Made by a program: the position numbers and the translations under genes. A DNA stretch of 54,500 bases from Verrucomicrobiia bacterium. GTDB taxonomy: Bacteria > Verrucomicrobiota > Verrucomicrobiia > Limisphaerales > UBA11358. The stretch lies in NCBI GenBank assembly GCA_036268155.1, contig DATAUQ010000095.1, forward strand, positions 1 through 54,500, in the 5' to 3' direction. Below the pieces are notes generated by a model, which searched no databases, was not told the origin of the DNA, and was given only the letters and a program-made list of their open reading frames with translations. Below, piece after piece: positions 6,871 to 23,964 of this stretch (the first letter of the stretch is position 1; the number at the start of each line of letters is the position of its first letter).

Positions 6871-7505
6871 TTCGGCCCATAATTTTCGCGCAAAAAATCA
6901 TCCTTATGGCTATGGCTAATAAAACAAGAGTGAAACTGAATTGGCGTTGCTGCTTCAATAAGGTCAGGAAGGTAGTCGAGTAAAATTGGAGAAAGTCCGA
7001 TCCCCTTGAGAAATTTTATAGGAAGTCCATTGCCAGCTTGGTAGAGGCATTCAACACCAATTGACGATGGAGATACATGAATAACAGTTTCCAATCCCAC
7101 ACAGGTTTCCATATCCACATCGGCAAAAACTGTTTTCCCCATGCGAGATTCTCGAAAAATTGTTCCAAACAAATGGGAACCAACAAACATAGTGCTTTCT
7201 AGTGAGGCTTTGTAAAAATTTGCTTTGGCAAGGTCGGCTTCAGCAAAACTAGCTTCATTTAATTGTGCGTCGCGAAAATTAGCCCCATCTAAAATAGCAT
7301 CTTCAAAATTTGCCCCAGTTAAATCACAGCCAACAAATTCAGCGTTGCGTAATATAGCGCTCTTAAAATTTTGCCCGCTTAAATTTTCTCCAGAAAGATT
7401 TTCGTTTTCCAAATAAACGCCGCGAAAATCCGGATTTTCAGACGCAATTATATCCTGCCAGCTTCTTGAATCTGGAAGCGTGTGTGATTTTTTCCCAATA
7501 GCCAT
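6867..7505 (-). CDS. pentapeptide-repeat protein ending in the first TIR motif; N-terminal fragment of the split gene
   Basis: A run of A(D/N)LxX-type pentapeptides (NLSGENLSGQNFKSAILRNAEFVGCDLTGANFEDAILDGANFRDAQLNEASFAEADLAKANFYKASL), then 'FHSCFISHSHKDD'. It overlaps the next ORF by 4 nt, and the frames rejoin at the T6 run (plus-strand A6 at 6892..6897). Confidence 0.75.
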   Translation of the reverse strand: MAIGKKSHTLPDSRSWQDIIASENPDFRGVYLENENLSGENLSGQNFKSAILRNAEFVGCDLTGANFEDAILDGANFRDAQLNEASFAEADLAKANFYKASLESTMFVGSHLFGTIFRESRMGKTVFADVDMETCVGLETVIHVSPSSIGVECLYQAGNGLPIKFLKGIGLSPILLDYLPDLIEAATPIQFHSCFISHSHKDDFLRENYGPK

Positions 7506-8524: not shown

Positions 8525-8779
8525 ATGAACGCTGAACTCTGCAAACGCGCCGCTGAAAAAGTCGGCAACCCGAATGTCCTCGTCAACATCGTCTCGCGCC
8601 GCGTGCGCCAGTTGAATTCCGGCGGCGGCGGCTTGAGCCGTCCGCTGATTGACAACGTGGGCCACCTCGGCGCGGCGGACATCGCGTTGCGCGAGATCAT
8701 CGAGGAAAAAATCGGCTGGAAAATGCCGGAGATCGTCGCCCTGACCCGCCCGGTGGCCAAGAAACGCAAGAAGCGGTAA
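8525..8779 (+). CDS. rpoZ: DNA-directed RNA polymerase subunit omega
   Basis: The 84-aa sequence 'KVGNPNVLVNIVSRRVRQLN...DIALREIIEEKI' matches the RpoZ pattern. Confidence 0.8.
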   Translation: MNAELCKRAAEKVGNPNVLVNIVSRRVRQLNSGGGGLSRPLIDNVGHLGAADIALREIIEEKIGWKMPEIVALTRPVAKKRKKR

Positions 8780-8844
8780 AAAGCGAATGAAGAATTAAGA
8801 AATGATTCATTCTGCCCTCCAGCACTTCTGATTTGTTAAATTTT

Positions 8845-16892: not shown

Positions 16893-18572
16893 ATGAGTGT
16901 CGTGAAAATAAAATTTGCCGGTTTGTTGCGAGGCCTGTTCCGTCGTTTCTCCGACGAGGAAGAAACAACCGTGATGACGAAACCCGTCCACCCCGCCCCC
17001 ATCGCGCCCTCAACTCCTATTCCCATGTCGTCTGAACCACCGTCAACTTCTGTCCCGCCGACGGTTGTGGCAAATCCCGACGAAATCCAACTGCCCTTGC
17101 AACCGGTCCTGGCAACTTTGCCGATGGAATTGCGCGCCAAGATCATGGGCGCAAACACGACGGGCATGACAATCTCGATTCCCGTCGAAAAAGCCCTCGC
17201 GCAACTGGCGACCGGCTCGGTCAAAATTTCCTTTGGCGAACTGCGCCAGCTCGCGCCGGGAGTTTTCGCCAATTCCGGCGGCGAACACGACGCCAAAATG
17301 GTTGCGCTGCCGCTGAACCAGATTCTCGCGCAACTCAACCCCACATTGCTGTCACGCCGCGCCGCGAAAAAGCACGTTGAAATTTCCGACGACATCACCA
17401 GCCCGTTTGACGCGCGCGGGCAGGGATTGAAAATTTCCACCGAGCAGATGAAAGCGACGCCAAAAGCGCCGACGCCTGAACCGGTGCCATTGTCACGGTT
17501 CACCCCGACTTTTTCGGAAGCGCCCGCCCAACCGCAGCCCGTCGTGCCGCCACCGGCATTTACGCCCCGCTGGACAATGTCATCATCCGGTGGTGAAACT
17601 GCTCCGCGCAACGGCAATGGCTCCAACGGCAACGGCGCGTCCAAGGCCCCATACATTTCAGCTGCGCCTGTTCCCAGTGCATCCGCCGCACCAATTCCTC
17701 CAACGACGGTTTTGCCGGGGCAGCCGCAGCCGACGATTTCCGCGCCGCTGGCCGGGCTTTCCGAACATTGGCCGGAAGCATTGAAGACGGAAATCGAACT
17801 GTTGGATTTGAACGGCGCGCAGGTCGCCTTGCCTGTTCATCTGGTTGAACCGGCGTTGAAACGTGGCCGCGTGATTTTCTCATGGCGTGATTTGCGTTCG
17901 TGGATAAAATCGGCGGCAGTGGCGGTGTCCGTCCATGACGGCATCGAACTGGAATTGCCGCTGAAAGTCCTTGCACCGCTGTTTTTTTCGCTTCAAAAAA
18001 ACGGCGCCGCCCAGCGGAAAGTTTCCGTCTCGGAAGAAATTCCCAATCTGTTCTTCGGTTTTCCGCAGGCTCAACCAGCCAGCGCATCACCAACGCCCGT
18101 GCCTTCAGCGGTTGCCGCCGCCATTCCGCCACTGCCGGACACGAATTTCTTTCTGCGCGCCAACCAGCCGCAGACGACCGATTCCGAATTCAAGCGCAAG
18201 GGTGGCACAGATTTTTCATCGCGCGCCGCGACTCCGGCGGACATTGTTGCCCGTGCGATGGAACTGCCCGGCGTGGCCGGCGCAGTCATCGCGCTGCCGG
18301 ATGGTTTGAAAGTGGCAAGCCAGATTCCTCCTGATTTGAACGGCGACACGCTCGCCGGCTTTCTCCCGCAGATTTTCGCGCGCGTGAACCAATGCTCGCG
18401 CGAACTGCGCATGGGCGACATGAACAATTTGAGTTTCACCGTCGGCAGCATTCCCTGGAAAATTTTCCGCGTGAACGCCGTTTATTTCGCTGCGTTCGGG
18501 CGTGCGAATGAAATGCTCCCGGGCGCGCCGCTGGCCGCATTGGCCACTGAACTCGACCGCAAAAAACAATAA
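16893..18572 (+). CDS. proline-rich protein with an internal duplication and a C-terminal Roadblock/LC7-like domain
   Basis: The C-terminus 'IVARAMELPGVAGAVIALPDGLKVASQIPPDLNGDTLAGFLPQIFARVNQCSRELRMGDMNNLSFTVGSIPWKIFRVNAVYFAAFG' fits the Roadblock pattern. The start is taken at the ATG at 16893, not the track start at 16776. It lies 8 nt upstream of mglA. Confidence 0.65.
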   Translation: MSVVKIKFAGLLRGLFRRFSDEEETTVMTKPVHPAPIAPSTPIPMSSEPPSTSVPPTVVANPDEIQLPLQPVLATLPMELRAKIMGANTTGMTISIPVEKALAQLATGSVKISFGELRQLAPGVFANSGGEHDAKMVALPLNQILAQLNPTLLSRRAAKKHVEISDDITSPFDARGQGLKISTEQMKATPKAPTPEPVPLSRFTPTFSEAPAQPQPVVPPPAFTPRWTMSSSGGETAPRNGNGSNGNGASKAPYISAAPVPSASAAPIPPTTVLPGQPQPTISAPLAGLSEHWPEALKTEIELLDLNGAQVALPVHLVEPALKRGRVIFSWRDLRSWIKSAAVAVSVHDGIELELPLKVLAPLFFSLQKNGAAQRKVSVSEEIPNLFFGFPQAQPASASPTPVPSAVAAAIPPLPDTNFFLRANQPQTTDSEFKRKGGTDFSSRAATPADIVARAMELPGVAGAVIALPDGLKVASQIPPDLNGDTLAGFLPQIFARVNQCSRELRMGDMNNLSFTVGSIPWKIFRVNAVYFAAFGRANEMLPGAPLAALATELDRKKQ

Positions 18573-18579
18573 TCATTTT

Positions 18580-19194
18580 ATGGCCATCATCAATCAAGCT
18601 ACCAAAGAGTTGCAGGTGAAGATCGTCTATTACGGCCCGGCAATGGGCGGCAAGACGACGAACCTCGTGCAAGTCCACGACCACGTCCAGACCAACGCCG
18701 GCAACAAAGGCAAACTCGTCTCGCTCGCAACGAGTTCCGACCGCACTTTATTTTTCGATTTTCTGCCGATCGAAGCGATGACGATCAAGGGCTTCAAGAC
18801 GAAATTCCAACTTTACACCGTTCCCGGCCAGGTGATTTACAACACCACGCGGCAGCTCGTGCTGCGCGGCGTGGACGGCATCGTGTTCGTCGCTGATTCG
18901 CAATATGAAAAAATGCCGGAGAACGTCGAGGCGTTTCAAAACCTGATGGACAATTTGAAAACTTTGAAGCTCGACATCGGCGAAATCCCCTACGTTCTGC
19001 AATACAACAAGCGCGATTTGCCGAATGCCGCGCCGGTGGAATATATGGATTTCCTGCTCAACAACCGCGACGTGCAGGTGCCGTCGTTTTCCGCGAGCGC
19101 GCACAAATGCGAGGGCGTGTTCGAGACGCTGAACATGATCACGCGGATGTTGCTGAACAAATATATCAACCAAAGCGTCCCGCAATACGCATGA
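18580..19194 (+). CDS. mglA: Ras-like small GTPase MglA
   Basis: Near colinear with Myxococcus MglA as I recall it: KIVYYGPAMGGKTTNL...SDRTLFFDFLP...KGFKTKFQLYTVPGQV...GVDGIVFVADSQ...IPYVLQYNKRDLPNA. Confidence 0.9.
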   Translation: MAIINQATKELQVKIVYYGPAMGGKTTNLVQVHDHVQTNAGNKGKLVSLATSSDRTLFFDFLPIEAMTIKGFKTKFQLYTVPGQVIYNTTRQLVLRGVDGIVFVADSQYEKMPENVEAFQNLMDNLKTLKLDIGEIPYVLQYNKRDLPNAAPVEYMDFLLNNRDVQVPSFSASAHKCEGVFETLNMITRMLLNKYINQSVPQYA

Positions 19195-19195
19195 C

Positions 19196-19672
19196 ATGGC
19201 CACTCTCCCACAACTCATCGAAGACGATATCGGGCGGCTCGACGAAGCGCTCCACGAGTTCATCACTGCTGCGGACGCAACAGCGGCGCTGGTCATCGAC
19301 AAGGGCGGCTTTCTCATCACGCATCAGGGCGATTCGCGTGACTTCGATCTGACCACCATCGCCGCACTTTCGTCCGGCGCGTTCATGGCCAACCAGACCA
19401 TCGCCGGTTTGGTGAACGAAACGAACTTCAACAGCATTTACCAGCAGGGCGAAAAATTCAGCCTCTTCGTCATCAACATTGACGACAATTGCATGCTCGT
19501 CGTGATCTTCAAATCCCAGACTGGCGTTGGCGTGGTGAAATATTATGCCGCCACCGCCGTCAAACGCATCGCCTGCCAGTTGTCCATCGCGCAGGAACGC
19601 GCGCCGGGCGCAGGCTTCGATTTGTCCGTCCTCAACGTCGCCGATAGCGAAAGCGTCTTCCGAAAAAAATAA
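19196..19672 (+). CDS. mglB: Roadblock/LC7 protein MglB (GAP partner of MglA)
   Basis: ALVIDKGGFLITHQGDSRDFDLTTIAALSSGAFMANQTIAGLV...SLFVINIDDNCMLVVIF. It starts 2 nt after the mglA stop. Confidence 0.85.
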   Translation: MATLPQLIEDDIGRLDEALHEFITAADATAALVIDKGGFLITHQGDSRDFDLTTIAALSSGAFMANQTIAGLVNETNFNSIYQQGEKFSLFVINIDDNCMLVVIFKSQTGVGVVKYYAATAVKRIACQLSIAQERAPGAGFDLSVLNVADSESVFRKK

Positions 19673-21269: not shown

Positions 21270-21530
21270 CATGGTTGAAACACGGCTGGAAAGCGCCGTA
21301 GGCGCGAAATATCTGTAAAACAGCAATTCACAAAATGAAAAAGCCCCGTCAGGGGCGGCATATTCGGAAGATGGCGTTCCTGCGGTGCTGCCGAAAATAG
21401 CCCAGCCATTTATGGCTGGGTTATGCGTCATACAAAATGAAAAGTCCCGGAGGGACGGCAGAATGAGTCTTTCGTCCCTGACGGGACTTGAAATTTGGGC
21501 GGACGAAAACCCACGGTTAAAACCGTGGAC
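21270..21530. repeat. block of hairpin repeat units, same families as 5955..6364
   Basis: gcgccgtaggcgc, ccccgtcagggg, cccagccatttatggctggg, gtcccggagggac...gtccctgacgggac, ccacggttaaaaccgtgg. The segment 21286..21352 matches the reverse complement of 6296..6360 closely (hand aligned). Confidence 0.8.
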
Positions 21531-21535
21531 TATTT

Positions 21536-21790
21536 TCAAAAAATCTTTTCCGCCGGCGCGGCGATGCCGATGCGATGGATGAGGTCGGTGGGCATAATAT
21601 AGATTTCCTGAATTTTTCCACTCAACTCGCAAATTGATTGAGACAGTTCGTAAAAGTCTCTTCTCAAGAGTAAATTTGAGCGGATGAAGTTTGCAATTTT
21701 TGGACTGTTCTCCATTTCTTCACGAGCCTCCGACTTCTGAACCATCAAAGGCGGAAGATTCAAATTTGGAGGATTGTGAACTCGCAGCAT
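21536..21790 (-). CDS. hypothetical protein (up to 84 aa), AT-rich
   Basis: ORF-track ORF only. Its 3' part runs into the repeat block, and I recognise no motif. Confidence 0.25.
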   Translation of the reverse strand: MLRVHNPPNLNLPPLMVQKSEAREEMENSPKIANFIRSNLLLRRDFYELSQSICELSGKIQEIYIMPTDLIHRIGIAAPAEKIF

Positions 21791-21837: not shown

Positions 21838-21951
21838 TTATTTCTTCCCATGCACCTTCGCCGCGACTTTCAGGCGCAGCGCGTTGAGTCGGATGAAGCC
21901 GGTGGCGTCGTCCTGGTTGTAGGCCTTGGTCGGGTCGGCTTCCATCGTGGC
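21838..21951 (-). pseudogene. orphan copy of the argG 3' end (last 37 codons plus stop)
   Basis: It translates to [37 protein letters not shown]. By hand count it has 9 mismatches over 111 nt against 22741..22851, all synonymous. Confidence 0.85.
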
Positions 21952-21962
21952 CGGGTTTGGGT

Positions 21963-22565
21963 TCATGCTTGCTCCAATCGTTTCTGCCAGAGTTTGGTCA
22001 GTGGCGTCCAGTCCAATCTGTCGGCGGCTTCCAATGCCTGAATGTAATTCTTGCGGGTGGTGTCGTTCTCTGGAGCAAGTTCGACGGGAGGCAATTCCTG
22101 TCGGCGCAAAATTTCGGCGAGCAGCAGACGGGTGGCGCGTCCGTTGAAATCAGGGAACGGATGAATGAACAGGATGCGTCCTTCGGCAAAGGCGAGCGTT
22201 TCCAGCAGCAGCGATTCTTTTCCGATGGACAATTCGGTCAGCCGCACATTCAAATCGGCAAAGTAATCGCGGACAAGCAGCGGGACTTGATGCGGAAGCG
22301 GCGGTGAGTGCTGGCCGACTTTGATTTCGGTTGCGCGAAACTTTCCCGTCCAATCGGGCGTGAGATCGCCGCAGATATTTTTGTGGAGGTCAAGCAGGAG
22401 GGATTCGTCCAGCGGGCGCGCAGCAAAAATGCCGTCCTCAATGTCTTGCAACACCCGCAAGACGCGCTCGGCCAGCAGCGGCGCGAGTTGCGAATAGGAC
22501 AAAATCCCGCGCGTCGTTTCTACGAAGCGCGTGGCGTGCGGCGGTTGTGTAGAGTCTTCAGCCAT
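21963..22565 (-). CDS. Fic family protein (toxin of a class-I Fic module)
   Basis: The Fic motif variant is HPFPDFNGRATR (canonical HxFx[D/E]GNGRxxR, with F in place of the first G). The start overlaps the upstream small ORF. Confidence 0.85.
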   Translation of the reverse strand: MAEDSTQPPHATRFVETTRGILSYSQLAPLLAERVLRVLQDIEDGIFAARPLDESLLLDLHKNICGDLTPDWTGKFRATEIKVGQHSPPLPHQVPLLVRDYFADLNVRLTELSIGKESLLLETLAFAEGRILFIHPFPDFNGRATRLLLAEILRRQELPPVELAPENDTTRKNYIQALEAADRLDWTPLTKLWQKRLEQA

Positions 22566-22696
22566 TCAAAATCCACCGGTTCGCCTTCAAACGCCATGCT
22601 CGCCGCGACCTGGTGCGGCACATCCGCCCAGCGACGAGCTTTGCGCTCCGCTGGTTTCAGTTTTCGCCAATCAGCAATTTTCTTCTGCCAAGTCAT
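22520..22696 (-). CDS. VbhA-like Fic antitoxin (58 codons, below the ORF-track cutoff)
   Basis: My translation is MTWQKKIADWRKLKPAERKARRWADVPHQVAASMAFEGEPVDFEWLKTLHNRRTPRAS*. It contains S-M-A-F-E-G, the [S/T]xxxE[G/N] inhibitory-helix motif, and overlaps the Fic start by 46 nt. Confidence 0.65.
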   Translation of the reverse strand: MTWQKKIADWRKLKPAERKARRWADVPHQVAASMAFEGEPVDFEWLKTLHNRRTPRAS

Positions 22697-22734
22697 GTTT
22701 GTAATCTACACGAACCACCGTGTTGCGCAAAGGT

Positions 22735-23964
22735 TCACTTTTTCTTTCCATGCACCTTGGCCGCGACTTTCAGGCGTAGCGCATTGAGCCGGATGAAGCC
22801 AGTGGCGTCGTCCTGATTGTAGGCTTTCGTCGGGTCGGCTTCCATCGTGGCGATGTGCGGATTGTAGAGGCTCACCTTACTCTTGCGTCCGCTGACCATG
22901 ATGTTGCCTTTGTAGAGTTTCACGCGCACCGTGCCGGTCACGTTCTTCTGGCTCTCGGTCACGTAGGCCTGCAACGCGAGGCGTTCGGGCGCATACCAAA
23001 AGCCGTTGTAGACCAACTCGGCATATTTCGGGATGAGCGCGTCGCGCTGGTGCATGACTTCGCGATCCATCGTGAGGCTTTCCATCTGCCGATGCGCAAA
23101 ATGCAGAATCGCGCCGCCGGGCGTTTCATAAACGCCGCGCGATTTCATGCCGACGAACCGGTTCTCCACCATGTCCACGCGCCCGACGCCGTGTTTGCCG
23201 CCGAGTTTGTTCAACGTCTTCATCACGCCGAGCGGAGAAAGTTTTTTGCCGTTCACCGCGACGCAATTGCCTTTGACGAAATCGAGCGTGACGAATTCCG
23301 GCTTGTCCGGCGCATCTTCGGGAAAAACGGAGAGCGTCGTGAAATAATTTTTGTTCTTCGGGTCGAACGAATCGAACCACGGGTCTTCGAGAATCCCGGC
23401 CTCGTAGGAAATATGCAGAAGATTCCGATCCATCGAGAATGATTTCTTCGCGCTGGCCTGCACGGGGATATTGTGCTTGGCGCAGTAATCAATCATCTCC
23501 TGCCGTCCGGGAAATTCGTTGCGATAGCGTTCGTCGCGCCACGGAGCAATGACTTGCAAATCCGGCGCGAGCGCGGCGGCGGTGAGTTCGAAGCGGACTT
23601 GGTCGTTTCCTTTGCCGGTCGCACCGTGCGCGATGGCATCGGCCTTTTCTTTCTTCGCGATCTCGACCATGCGCTTGGCGATGAGCGGACGCGCAATGGA
23701 CGTGCCGAGAAAATACTGGCCTTCATAAATCGCACCCGCGTGAATCATCGGATAAATAAAATCGCGGGCGAATTCTTCCTGCAAATCGTCAATGTAGATT
23801 TTGGACGCGCCGGTCTTGATGGCTTTGGCTTCGAGGCCGTCGAGTTCCTCTTCCTGCCCGATGTCGGCGCAGAAGCCGATCATCTCGGCGTTGTATTTTT
23901 CCTTGATCCAGGACATCAGCACCGAGGTGTCGAGTCCGCCGGAGTAAGCTAAAACAATTTTCAT
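22735..23964 (-). CDS. argG: argininosuccinate synthase
   Basis: [15 protein letters not shown]...[15 protein letters not shown]...ISYEAG are canonical ArgG motifs. Confidence 0.95.

Follow-up and report, generated by a model that had tools for sequence, protein, structure and literature searches.

A predicted class-I FicTA cassette bracketed by a duplicated argG 3′ end in a Verrucomicrobiia bacterium

The 54,500-nucleotide (nt) stretch of DNA analyzed here (contig DATAUQ010000095.1 of assembly GCA_036268155.1, from a Verrucomicrobiia bacterium; called the window below) contains an intact argininosuccinate synthase gene, argG, whose 3′ end is present a second time, with a predicted Fic-domain toxin gene and its small putative antitoxin gene lying between the two copies. 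The features of the locus are all on the minus strand and are listed here in the direction of transcription. Copy B and copy A are the two copies of the repeat, and L-numbers denote the loci used for comparison, among which L112 is a relative that lacks the cassette.

22735..23964, minus strand: argG (argininosuccinate synthase, 409 amino acids [aa]), intact; Pfam PF00764 (Arginosuc_synth) at E = 3e-64 and PF20979 (Arginosuc_syn_C) at E = 8e-78; homologues 88-97% identical.
22852..22863, minus strand: functional counterpart, within argG, of the 12-nt stub listed below, AATCCGCACATC, codons N-P-H-I; 6 of 12 positions differ from 21952-21963.
22741..22851, minus strand: repeat copy B, the functional argG 3′ end and apparently the divergent copy; derived alleles at 8 of the 9 variable sites, and 103/111 positions identical to L112.
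22735..22740, minus strand: argG tip AAG-TGA, an extra Lys codon and stop that allele comparison links to the cassette.
22697..22734, minus strand: conserved leader of the cassette, ACCTTTGCGCAACACGGTGGTTCGTGTAGATTACAAAC, which has a -10-like TAGATT 6 nt upstream of the antitoxin ATG; kept across loci with different flanks.
22520..22696, minus strand: putative 58-aa antitoxin of FicA/VbhA type, motif S33-M-A-F-E37-G38, assigned by motif and gene arrangement.
21963..22565, minus strand: predicted 200-aa Fic-domain toxin, motif HPFPDFNGRATR; Pfam PF02661.
21952..21963, minus strand: degenerate cassette-proximal stub AACCCAAACCCG, the old part of the repeat; 6/12 diverged, against 9/111 for the remainder (p = 7e-4).
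21841..21951, minus strand: repeat copy A, an orphan argG end, apparently displaced and native-like; 110/111 positions identical to the cassette-free L112.
21536..21790, minus strand: orf84, a gene of low GC content (44%) in the variable region that separates argG from the backbone with the golvesin-like and UDG genes.

A repeat search returns a single direct repeat of 111 nt with a spacing of 900 nt and 92% identity (102/111 positions; blastn gives E = 4e-41). Both copies encode the same 37 residues. All nine differences, seven transitions and two transversions, are third-position and synonymous in a codon-level comparison. The hand alignment of the first-pass annotation, which had been made from the letters of the window and had given nine synonymous differences, is confirmed by computation. 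Copy B runs on as a Lys codon and a TGA stop, and copy A closes with TAA. The homology extends 12 nt further, to the Fic stop codon (21952-21963 against 22852-22863), for a total of 123 nt; the longest block in which the copies are identical is 23 nt (GCCACGATGGAAGCCGACCCGAC), lies at the 5′ edge of the repeat, and is kept in all argG alleles compared. The orphan copy A sits in a 42-aa open reading frame (ORF; 21838-21966) whose ATG overlaps the Fic stop codon (ATGA). The insert between the copies measures 789 bp, and the antitoxin and Fic ORFs fill all of it but 38 nt and 11 nt of non-coding sequence at the two ends.

A JGI contig (L001) and a Logan contig from run SRR11836410 (L002) are 100% identical to the window across the junctions, and the same layout is found on dozens of further contigs from metagenomes and metagenome-assembled genomes (MAGs). 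The Logan contig is 910 nt long and corresponds to 21922-22831 of the window, so that it begins at position 20 of copy B and stops at position 29 of copy A. These are the points at which an assembly graph with k = 31 would be expected to branch if the sample also contained a B/A hybrid and an argG joined to an A-type end, as in an empty site or a related strain. Its end points hint at presence and absence of the cassette, or at repeat-by-repeat recombination, in the population.

The larger ORF of the insert matches the Fic family of Pfam (PF02661, E = 8e-12), and its best match among PDB sequences is the eukaryotic FICD (E = 2e-16). Its Fic motif has the His, Asp, Asn and both Arg residues, and carries F where the canonical HxFx(D/E)GNGRxxR has G, a substitution that is conserved in the family in the pattern HPFxDFNGR. 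The antitoxin ORF overlaps it by 46 nt and contains SMAFEG at residues 33-38, which fits [S/T]xxxE[G/N], the inhibitory-helix motif that defines the FicA/VbhA antitoxins (PMC5033356). The S and E of this motif are invariant in 100 of 100 homologues and the G is present in 67 of them. Pfam and PDB sequence searches with the 58-aa protein gave no match, and we assign it as an antitoxin because of its motif and the gene arrangement. By architecture and motifs the pair is a probable class-I FicTA, with toxin and antitoxin activities that are predicted; ORF content, the Pfam match and the SMAFEG motif bear out the earlier statement that the insert holds nothing but a Fic gene and its small antitoxin. 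The conserved leader with its TAGATT presumably acts as a promoter; a scan for the sigma-70 consensus gave it no score. At one comparison locus (L030:792-991) argG and the antitoxin gene are intact and the Fic gene is cut after 23 codons and followed by unrelated sequence, an antitoxin-only remnant.

Three cassette-free relatives (L111, L112 and L113), whose ArgG proteins are 93-97% identical to that of the window, each carry a single argG end that aligns with both copies, so in these relatives the duplication does not occur apart from the insert. A different gene in each begins 5-12 nt past the argG stop codon. Synteny of L111 with the window resumes only at 21598, from where it continues through the golvesin-like and UDG genes, and the stretch after argG is thus a variable hotspot. 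The last ~60 nt of orf84 (21538-21598) are a conserved element at the point where synteny returns. Look-ups of exact sequences found orf84 and the antitoxin on the source contig only, and found nothing for the neighboring UDG and pilin-like genes. At L005 a 54-nt direct repeat (2317-2370 and 2884-2937, 89% identical) surrounds a gene for a 128-aa rhodanese-like protein; the repeated sequence makes up the final ~54 nt of an orf84-like ORF and has its homologue in the window at the end of orf84 (21547-21598). Small cassettes bracketed by duplicated ends may therefore be general to the argG-to-UDG variable region and not confined to FicTA.

Comparison with the relatives polarizes the nine differences between the copies. 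At eight of them copy A has the allele of nearly all relatives and copy B is derived, and copy A is unique at one. In identity to the functional argG end of L112 the copies are far from equal (110/111 for A, 103/111 for B). If the end had been duplicated in place, about 80% of the changes would be expected on the unselected orphan, and the probability of one or none in nine is 1.5e-5; since the orphan changed only once, duplication in place followed by decay is rejected. Copies A and B have had separate histories as functional argG ends, as the first-pass annotation had proposed. Its argument, that random decay should have left mostly non-synonymous changes, led to the right conclusion but is itself weak, because eight of the nine changes lie on functional B, where only synonymous changes survive. 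The accompanying idea of an imported end is upheld in modified form: by its sequence it is the orphan, A, that resembles the native end, and the divergent partner appears to be B together with its AAGTGA tip.

The tip is the part of copy B that can be tied to the cassette. Cassette-linked copies of argG end in ...AAGTGA, and the orphans and cassette-free alleles end mostly in TAA or TAG. The scar AAAAGTGA precedes the cassette at sites outside argG (L006, L029, L021 and L010), and because AAGTGA recurs in this way the tip of copy B, at least, can be placed in the cassette lineage. The likeliest course is that copy B came in together with the cassette. The argG gene as a whole is strongly mosaic relative to L111-L113, its identity to L112 being 96-100% at the 5′ end and 71-74% around codons 180-220, and such mosaicism among close relatives indicates frequent homologous recombination inside argG.

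All argG-linked cassettes share the left junction, in which the argG stop codon is followed by the conserved leader, and the right junction, in which the Fic stop ATGA is followed by degenerate AACCCGCACATC; the duplication at argG is thus old and of a single origin. The repeat, in contrast, is not of one age. In seven pooled loci the stub is 48% diverged and the next 111 nt 7.5% (40/84 against 58/777, p = 2e-19), and derived bases of the stub are common to the window, L005, L116 and L126. This difference argues that the proximal part was inherited with the cassette and that the distal part has repeatedly been replaced from functional argG genes. Travel with the cassette is shown only for the 12-nt stub and the ...AAGTGA tip; the other ~111 nt of the orphan resemble host argG. 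The orphans are intact in the window, L005 and L035 and decayed in L031 (a stop codon) and L009 (indels), and from this range it follows that the orphan peptide is under no general selection; the orphan of L011 bears the unusual C-terminal tail of its own lineage.

A pair of closely related loci shows where exchange has occurred. L116 and L118 have identical Fic proteins and a backbone that is ~99.4% identical, and they share a block of 872 nt without a mismatch that begins at position 55 of copy B, spans the cassette and ends at position 26 of copy A. Clusters of mismatches lie immediately to either side of it, and past the orphan stop codon the two loci are unrelated. The limits of the block indicate that recombination tracts start and end within the repeat copies. 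We considered a single Campbell-type crossover, which would need a crossover point after position 54 in one of the copies but ahead of position 27 in the second; it is ruled out, as the two copies of L118 differ at positions ~26-27 and 31-32, in the 27-54 overlap. Since a single such crossover cannot yield the pattern, it reflects an exchange between cassette-bearing genomes. Beyond the orphan the downstream neighborhoods differ among loci, with Macro-domain, HEAT-repeat or other genes, and the orphan is the arm that joins the cassette to them. An in-frame palindromic insertion of 33 nt, CCGTCCTCCGTAGCAACACTGCGGAGGGTGGAC, lies in the orphan of L118 (3656-3688) and is missing from the near-identical L116.

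The pattern is not peculiar to the window. The Fic protein has 712 homologues, many of them on short contigs (0.9-1.2 kb) whose breaks coincide with the cassette borders, and 476 relatives occur in species-representative genomes, nearly all labelled Verrucomicrobiota. Several MAG records with a cassette of Verrucomicrobia type (L033, L040, L057, L080 and others) are labelled Bifidobacterium, Klebsiella, Akkermansia muciniphila or Comamonadaceae; some of the comparison contigs thus have doubtful taxon labels, and these names probably stem from mistakes in the binning or labelling of the public records. A direct repeat of 40 nt or more, with a copy on each side no further than 300 nt away, accompanies 16 of 78 cassette loci and 2 of 274 control segments taken from the same contigs (Fisher p = 1e-9). 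The repeats at the cassettes are terminal coding parts of the conserved gene that adjoins the cassette and range from 41 to 314 nt in length. At many loci this is the argG 3′ end; the other duplicated 3′ ends are those of thiamine-phosphate synthase (TMP-TENI/thiE), MutS and a 4Fe-4S protein, and duplicated 5′ ends occur for an ABC ATPase and a cas3-like gene. At the thiE and DbpA-like sites the cassette has short argG scars at both ends, and the cassettes there therefore stem from an argG-linked ancestor; a new duplication has formed at the thiE site. At the argG and thiE junctions, which were inspected by eye, the microhomology is about 1 nt. L011 contains arrays of cassettes with copies of the argG end between them.

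In several genomes (L040, L041 and L042) the FicTA cassette lies directly upstream of the cas3-like gene, and at L040 the duplicate of its 5′ end is 189 nt long (7292-7477 and 8597-8782). The cas3-like fragment has no Pfam match and is named from our reading of its sequence motifs. Many of the Fic homologues bear the JGI label "CRISPR-associated endonuclease/helicase Cas3", apparently an annotation that spilled over from this linkage.

Pfam scans, which covered all window ORFs of at least 180 aa together with the precomputed calls for the matching JGI contig, found no integrase, transposase or phage gene in the 54.5 kb, in agreement with the first-pass annotation, which had seen no integrase. 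The neighbors are housekeeping genes, among them guaA, recG, dnaK and glnD, and genes for pilin-like proteins, and the sole tRNA gene of the window is ~19 kb from the cassette. The cassette has a GC content of 56% (window 54%), and we found neither terminal inverted repeats nor attC-like structures at its ends and no arm-type repeats in the insert. Collections of plasmid, phage and viral contigs held no close carrier; the only matches were Fic proteins at most 40% identical on Rhodococcus plasmids, with nothing viral. The locus thus lacks the end inverted repeat and the integrase of an integron cassette, and it lacks the terminal inverted repeats and transposase of a transposon or insertion sequence, its duplication of 41-314 nt varying by target. 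As for integrase islands, there is no recombinase in the window, though an enzyme encoded elsewhere in the genome might act in trans, and the identity of the repeat changes by locus. Two other features of the surroundings may be recorded here. Three terminator-like GC-rich hairpins lie in a low-coding stretch after orf84 (21330-21530), two of them within a direct repeat of ~100 nt (ACAAAATGAAAAAGCCC...), and at 18502-19672 a Ras/Arf-like small GTPase gene adjoins that of a Roadblock/LC7 protein, an MglA/MglB-like pair near a PatA_N response regulator (~15.5-16.6 kb).

On balance we think it likely, though by no means certain, that the locus is a recombinase-free class-I FicTA addiction cassette of ~790 bp for which the duplicated argG end acts as arms for homologous recombination. 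On each side the cassette is flanked by a match to the same highly conserved stretch of an essential gene, and the two flanks would thus serve as built-in homology arms. RecA-type homologous recombination with the DNA of relatives could carry the cassette into the naive argG of any relative by a double crossover, with the left end in argG/copy B and the right end in the first part of the orphan, and the recipient's own argG end would then stay behind as the orphan. The same arms would allow a later overwriting of the orphan by the functional argG end of another genome. Because either insertion or overwriting would bring in functional ends, what separates the two copies would be no more than the synonymous divergence of functional alleles from one another, as is seen in the window. 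Loss of the cassette through repeat-by-repeat deletion would afterwards be opposed by the toxin-antitoxin pair. For the first duplication at a new target there are two candidates, homology-facilitated illegitimate recombination and a template switch in replication that returned upstream of its point of departure.

Several points weigh against this account. The exact empty site, argG followed directly by the orf84 region (21536-21790), for which the first-pass annotation had proposed a search, was not found, either in the relatives or by the exact-sequence look-ups. Copy B does not cluster with the other cassette-linked argG ends, and for this reason no donor lineage can be named for it; apart from its tip it may have entered by a recombination event of its own and not with the cassette. 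The left crossover could not be located by sliding-window identity and mapping of private mismatches, as argG is mosaic among the relatives. The exchange between L116 and L118 took place between genomes that already had the cassette and is not evidence of insertion into a naive site. All of the comparison loci are metagenome or MAG contigs, several of them are related by descent, and the independent events are therefore fewer than the loci. Finally, the account starts from an existing duplication, and the host is uncultured. A stronger version, in which the FicTA cassette would be an autonomous recombinase-free mobile element whose entry reproducibly makes a long duplication of a conserved gene's end and so supplies portable arms for homologous spread into every relative with that gene, irrespective of the downstream sequence, seems to us unlikely. 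In this version the toxin might, through an action on DNA topology, provoke breaks or template switches, much as double-strand breaks have been invoked for restriction-modification systems.

Among the alternatives, a fresh, one-sided illegitimate event in this lineage, homologous on the left and joined illegitimately just upstream of the recipient's argG end, is unlikely. The donor DNA would have carried a 3′ part of argG and the cassette, the right-hand join would have been made by homology-facilitated illegitimate recombination or a replicative template switch, and the duplication would have originated here. It would account for a foreign B beside a native A, for repeat lengths that depend on the target and for the short scars of earlier flanks, and the mechanism has documented cases in competent bacteria and is an explanation offered for toxin-immunity arrays (PMC5361080, PMC3240628). 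However, the right junction, ATGA and the NPHI stub with its shared derived bases, is common by descent and so was not made in this lineage, and homologous events outnumber illegitimate ones by orders of magnitude. As the original event at each new target, an illegitimate join is a good candidate.

Site-specific integration is distinctly unlikely. By this explanation the insert would be a defective cis-mobilizable element with its att site in the argG 3′ end, moved by a tyrosine or serine integrase encoded elsewhere, and the repeats would be attL and attR. A replacement end at the gene with the displaced native end past the cargo is the expected topology, a native-like A and a foreign B are as predicted, the arrays of L011, separated by argG-end copies, would fit, and the 23-nt identical block could serve as a core site. 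That block, however, is conserved in all argG alleles regardless. No integrase is encoded in the 54.5 kb, and the 38 and 11 nt of non-coding DNA hold no inverted or arm-type repeats; as the repeats also vary by target, a fixed att site with a dedicated integrase fits poorly. The cassette occurs at the ends of thiE, mutS, ABC and cas3-like genes with argG scars of 12-50 nt at most and no argG att site, the repeats range in length as given above, and the L116/L118 breakpoints differ between the copies (position 55 in B, 26 in A). The first-pass annotation had seen in the locus the topology left by islands that integrate into a gene 3′ end; that comparison does not hold, given the cassettes beside unrelated gene ends, the split of the repeat into old and young parts and the breakpoints inside the repeats.

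Duplication in place, with divergence and gene conversion between the copies but no import, is very unlikely. At L011 and L031 the copies are closer to each other within the genome than to those of other genomes, which speaks for some concerted evolution or local origin there. Conversion should make A like B, whereas A is identical to the functional end of another genome at 110 of 111 positions and to B at 102; the unselected copy changed least (the probability given above applies here also), and the contrast between stub and distal part requires repeated overwriting from functional alleles.

That the orphan is itself functional, a 42-aa ORF translationally coupled to Fic that yields a free ArgG C-terminal peptide under purifying selection, is hardly credible. 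In its favor are the in-frame ATG that overlaps the Fic stop codon, the fact that the ORF is called as a gene in several assemblies, and the frame-preserving nature of both orphan indels (+9 nt in L009 and +33 nt in L118). Against it, eight of the nine differences sit on copy B, and orphans elsewhere have a stop codon (L031), replacements (L032 and L003) or a truncation (L007 and L033); at targets other than argG (L006 and L010) the ATG and the duplicated fragment are in different frames, and the ATG and frame come from one ancestral junction and hence are not independent evidence.

An assembly artefact made from argG strain variants, which the many Fic homologues on 0.9-1.2 kb contigs that break at the repeat might bring to mind, has a virtually negligible probability, as three independent assemblies are identical over both junctions, the copies share no identical run of 31 nt or more, and the architecture is present on many long contigs from other samples.

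The locus is a further case of insertion with long target duplication; the pattern is known and its mechanism unsolved. Such an insertion was reportedly described for restriction-modification systems by Nobusato et al. in 2000 (in Gene 259:99). The pattern is known for restriction-modification systems in Helicobacter, Haemophilus, Neisseria and others, with the mechanism not established (PMC2853133, PMC3874152). In both cases a small addiction module without a mobility gene lies between long direct repeats of variable length; in the restriction-modification insertions the repeats are roughly 30 to over 400 bp and often include the 3′ end of a neighboring gene, and relatives free of the insert have a single copy. 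Furuta, Abe and Kobayashi (2010, PMC2853133) ask for an insert of less than 20 kb with a complete addiction module, a direct repeat of more than 30 bp, an insert-free relative with a single copy and no mobility gene in or beside the insert; here we find 789 bp with the predicted toxin and antitoxin genes, 111 nt at 92% identity (123 nt with the stub), single copies in L111-L113, though their downstream genes differ, and no mobility gene in the Pfam scans of the window. Unlike those insertions, the cargo is a type II toxin-antitoxin pair by prediction, the host belongs to the Verrucomicrobiota, and one cassette family is found at many targets. That the repeat is old where the cassette carries it and young where it resembles the host, a division that points to homologous recombination through the repeats, is not described in PMC2853133 or PMC3874152, and a limited literature search found no insertion with long target duplication described for a toxin-antitoxin pair or in Verrucomicrobiota.

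As a toxin-antitoxin pair, the cassette resembles class I FicTA modules (VbhT/VbhA and EcFicT/EcFicA; PMC5033356) in its small upstream ORF with the inhibitory motif, which overlaps a Fic gene with the catalytic His and both Arg. It differs from VbhT and EcFicT in that the Fic motif reads HPFPDFNGR, with F for G, the closest PDB sequence is FICD, and the antitoxin has no Pfam or PDB match.

Orphan gene ends are also found at effector loci. Displacement of C-terminal ends and the resulting orphan arrays were reportedly described by Jackson et al. in 2009. At Rhs, contact-dependent inhibition (CDI) and type VI secretion system (T6SS) effector loci an incoming 3′ end displaces the old one as an orphan, arrays are formed, and homologous exchange takes place through the conserved part, with homology-facilitated illegitimate recombination proposed as the origin (Kirchberger et al. 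2017, PMC5361080). Unlike those displacements, the end concerned here is that of a housekeeping enzyme, the same peptide is restored without any exchange of function, and the cargo has no relation to the target gene.

What the locus adds is a second, unrelated class of addiction module, toxin-antitoxin, with a footprint known since 2000 for restriction-modification systems, and this footprint recurs at the ends of several housekeeping genes across the phylum. The structure of the repeat, with its old stub, young remainder and internal breakpoints, gives the duplication a concrete and testable role as homology arms. It also calls for caution, since a gene end and an orphan that differ only at synonymous sites can come from recombination with functional alleles, and the pattern requires neither selection on the orphan nor an integrase. 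Integrase-borne islands and cis-mobilizable elements in the 3′ ends of tRNA and protein genes likewise have gene-end direct repeats, an element-borne replacement end and tandem accretion; unlike these, the FicTA locus has no integrase, no room for att and arm sites, and a repeat that depends on the target. In Neisseria, minimal mobile elements are cassettes between conserved genes that are exchanged by transformation and homologous recombination. Like them, the FicTA locus is a recombinase-free cassette at a chromosomal hotspot that would spread through flanking homology. The minimal mobile elements, however, use two different flanking genes as arms, whereas at the FicTA locus both arms are the same gene end, so that the downstream neighborhood is free to differ.

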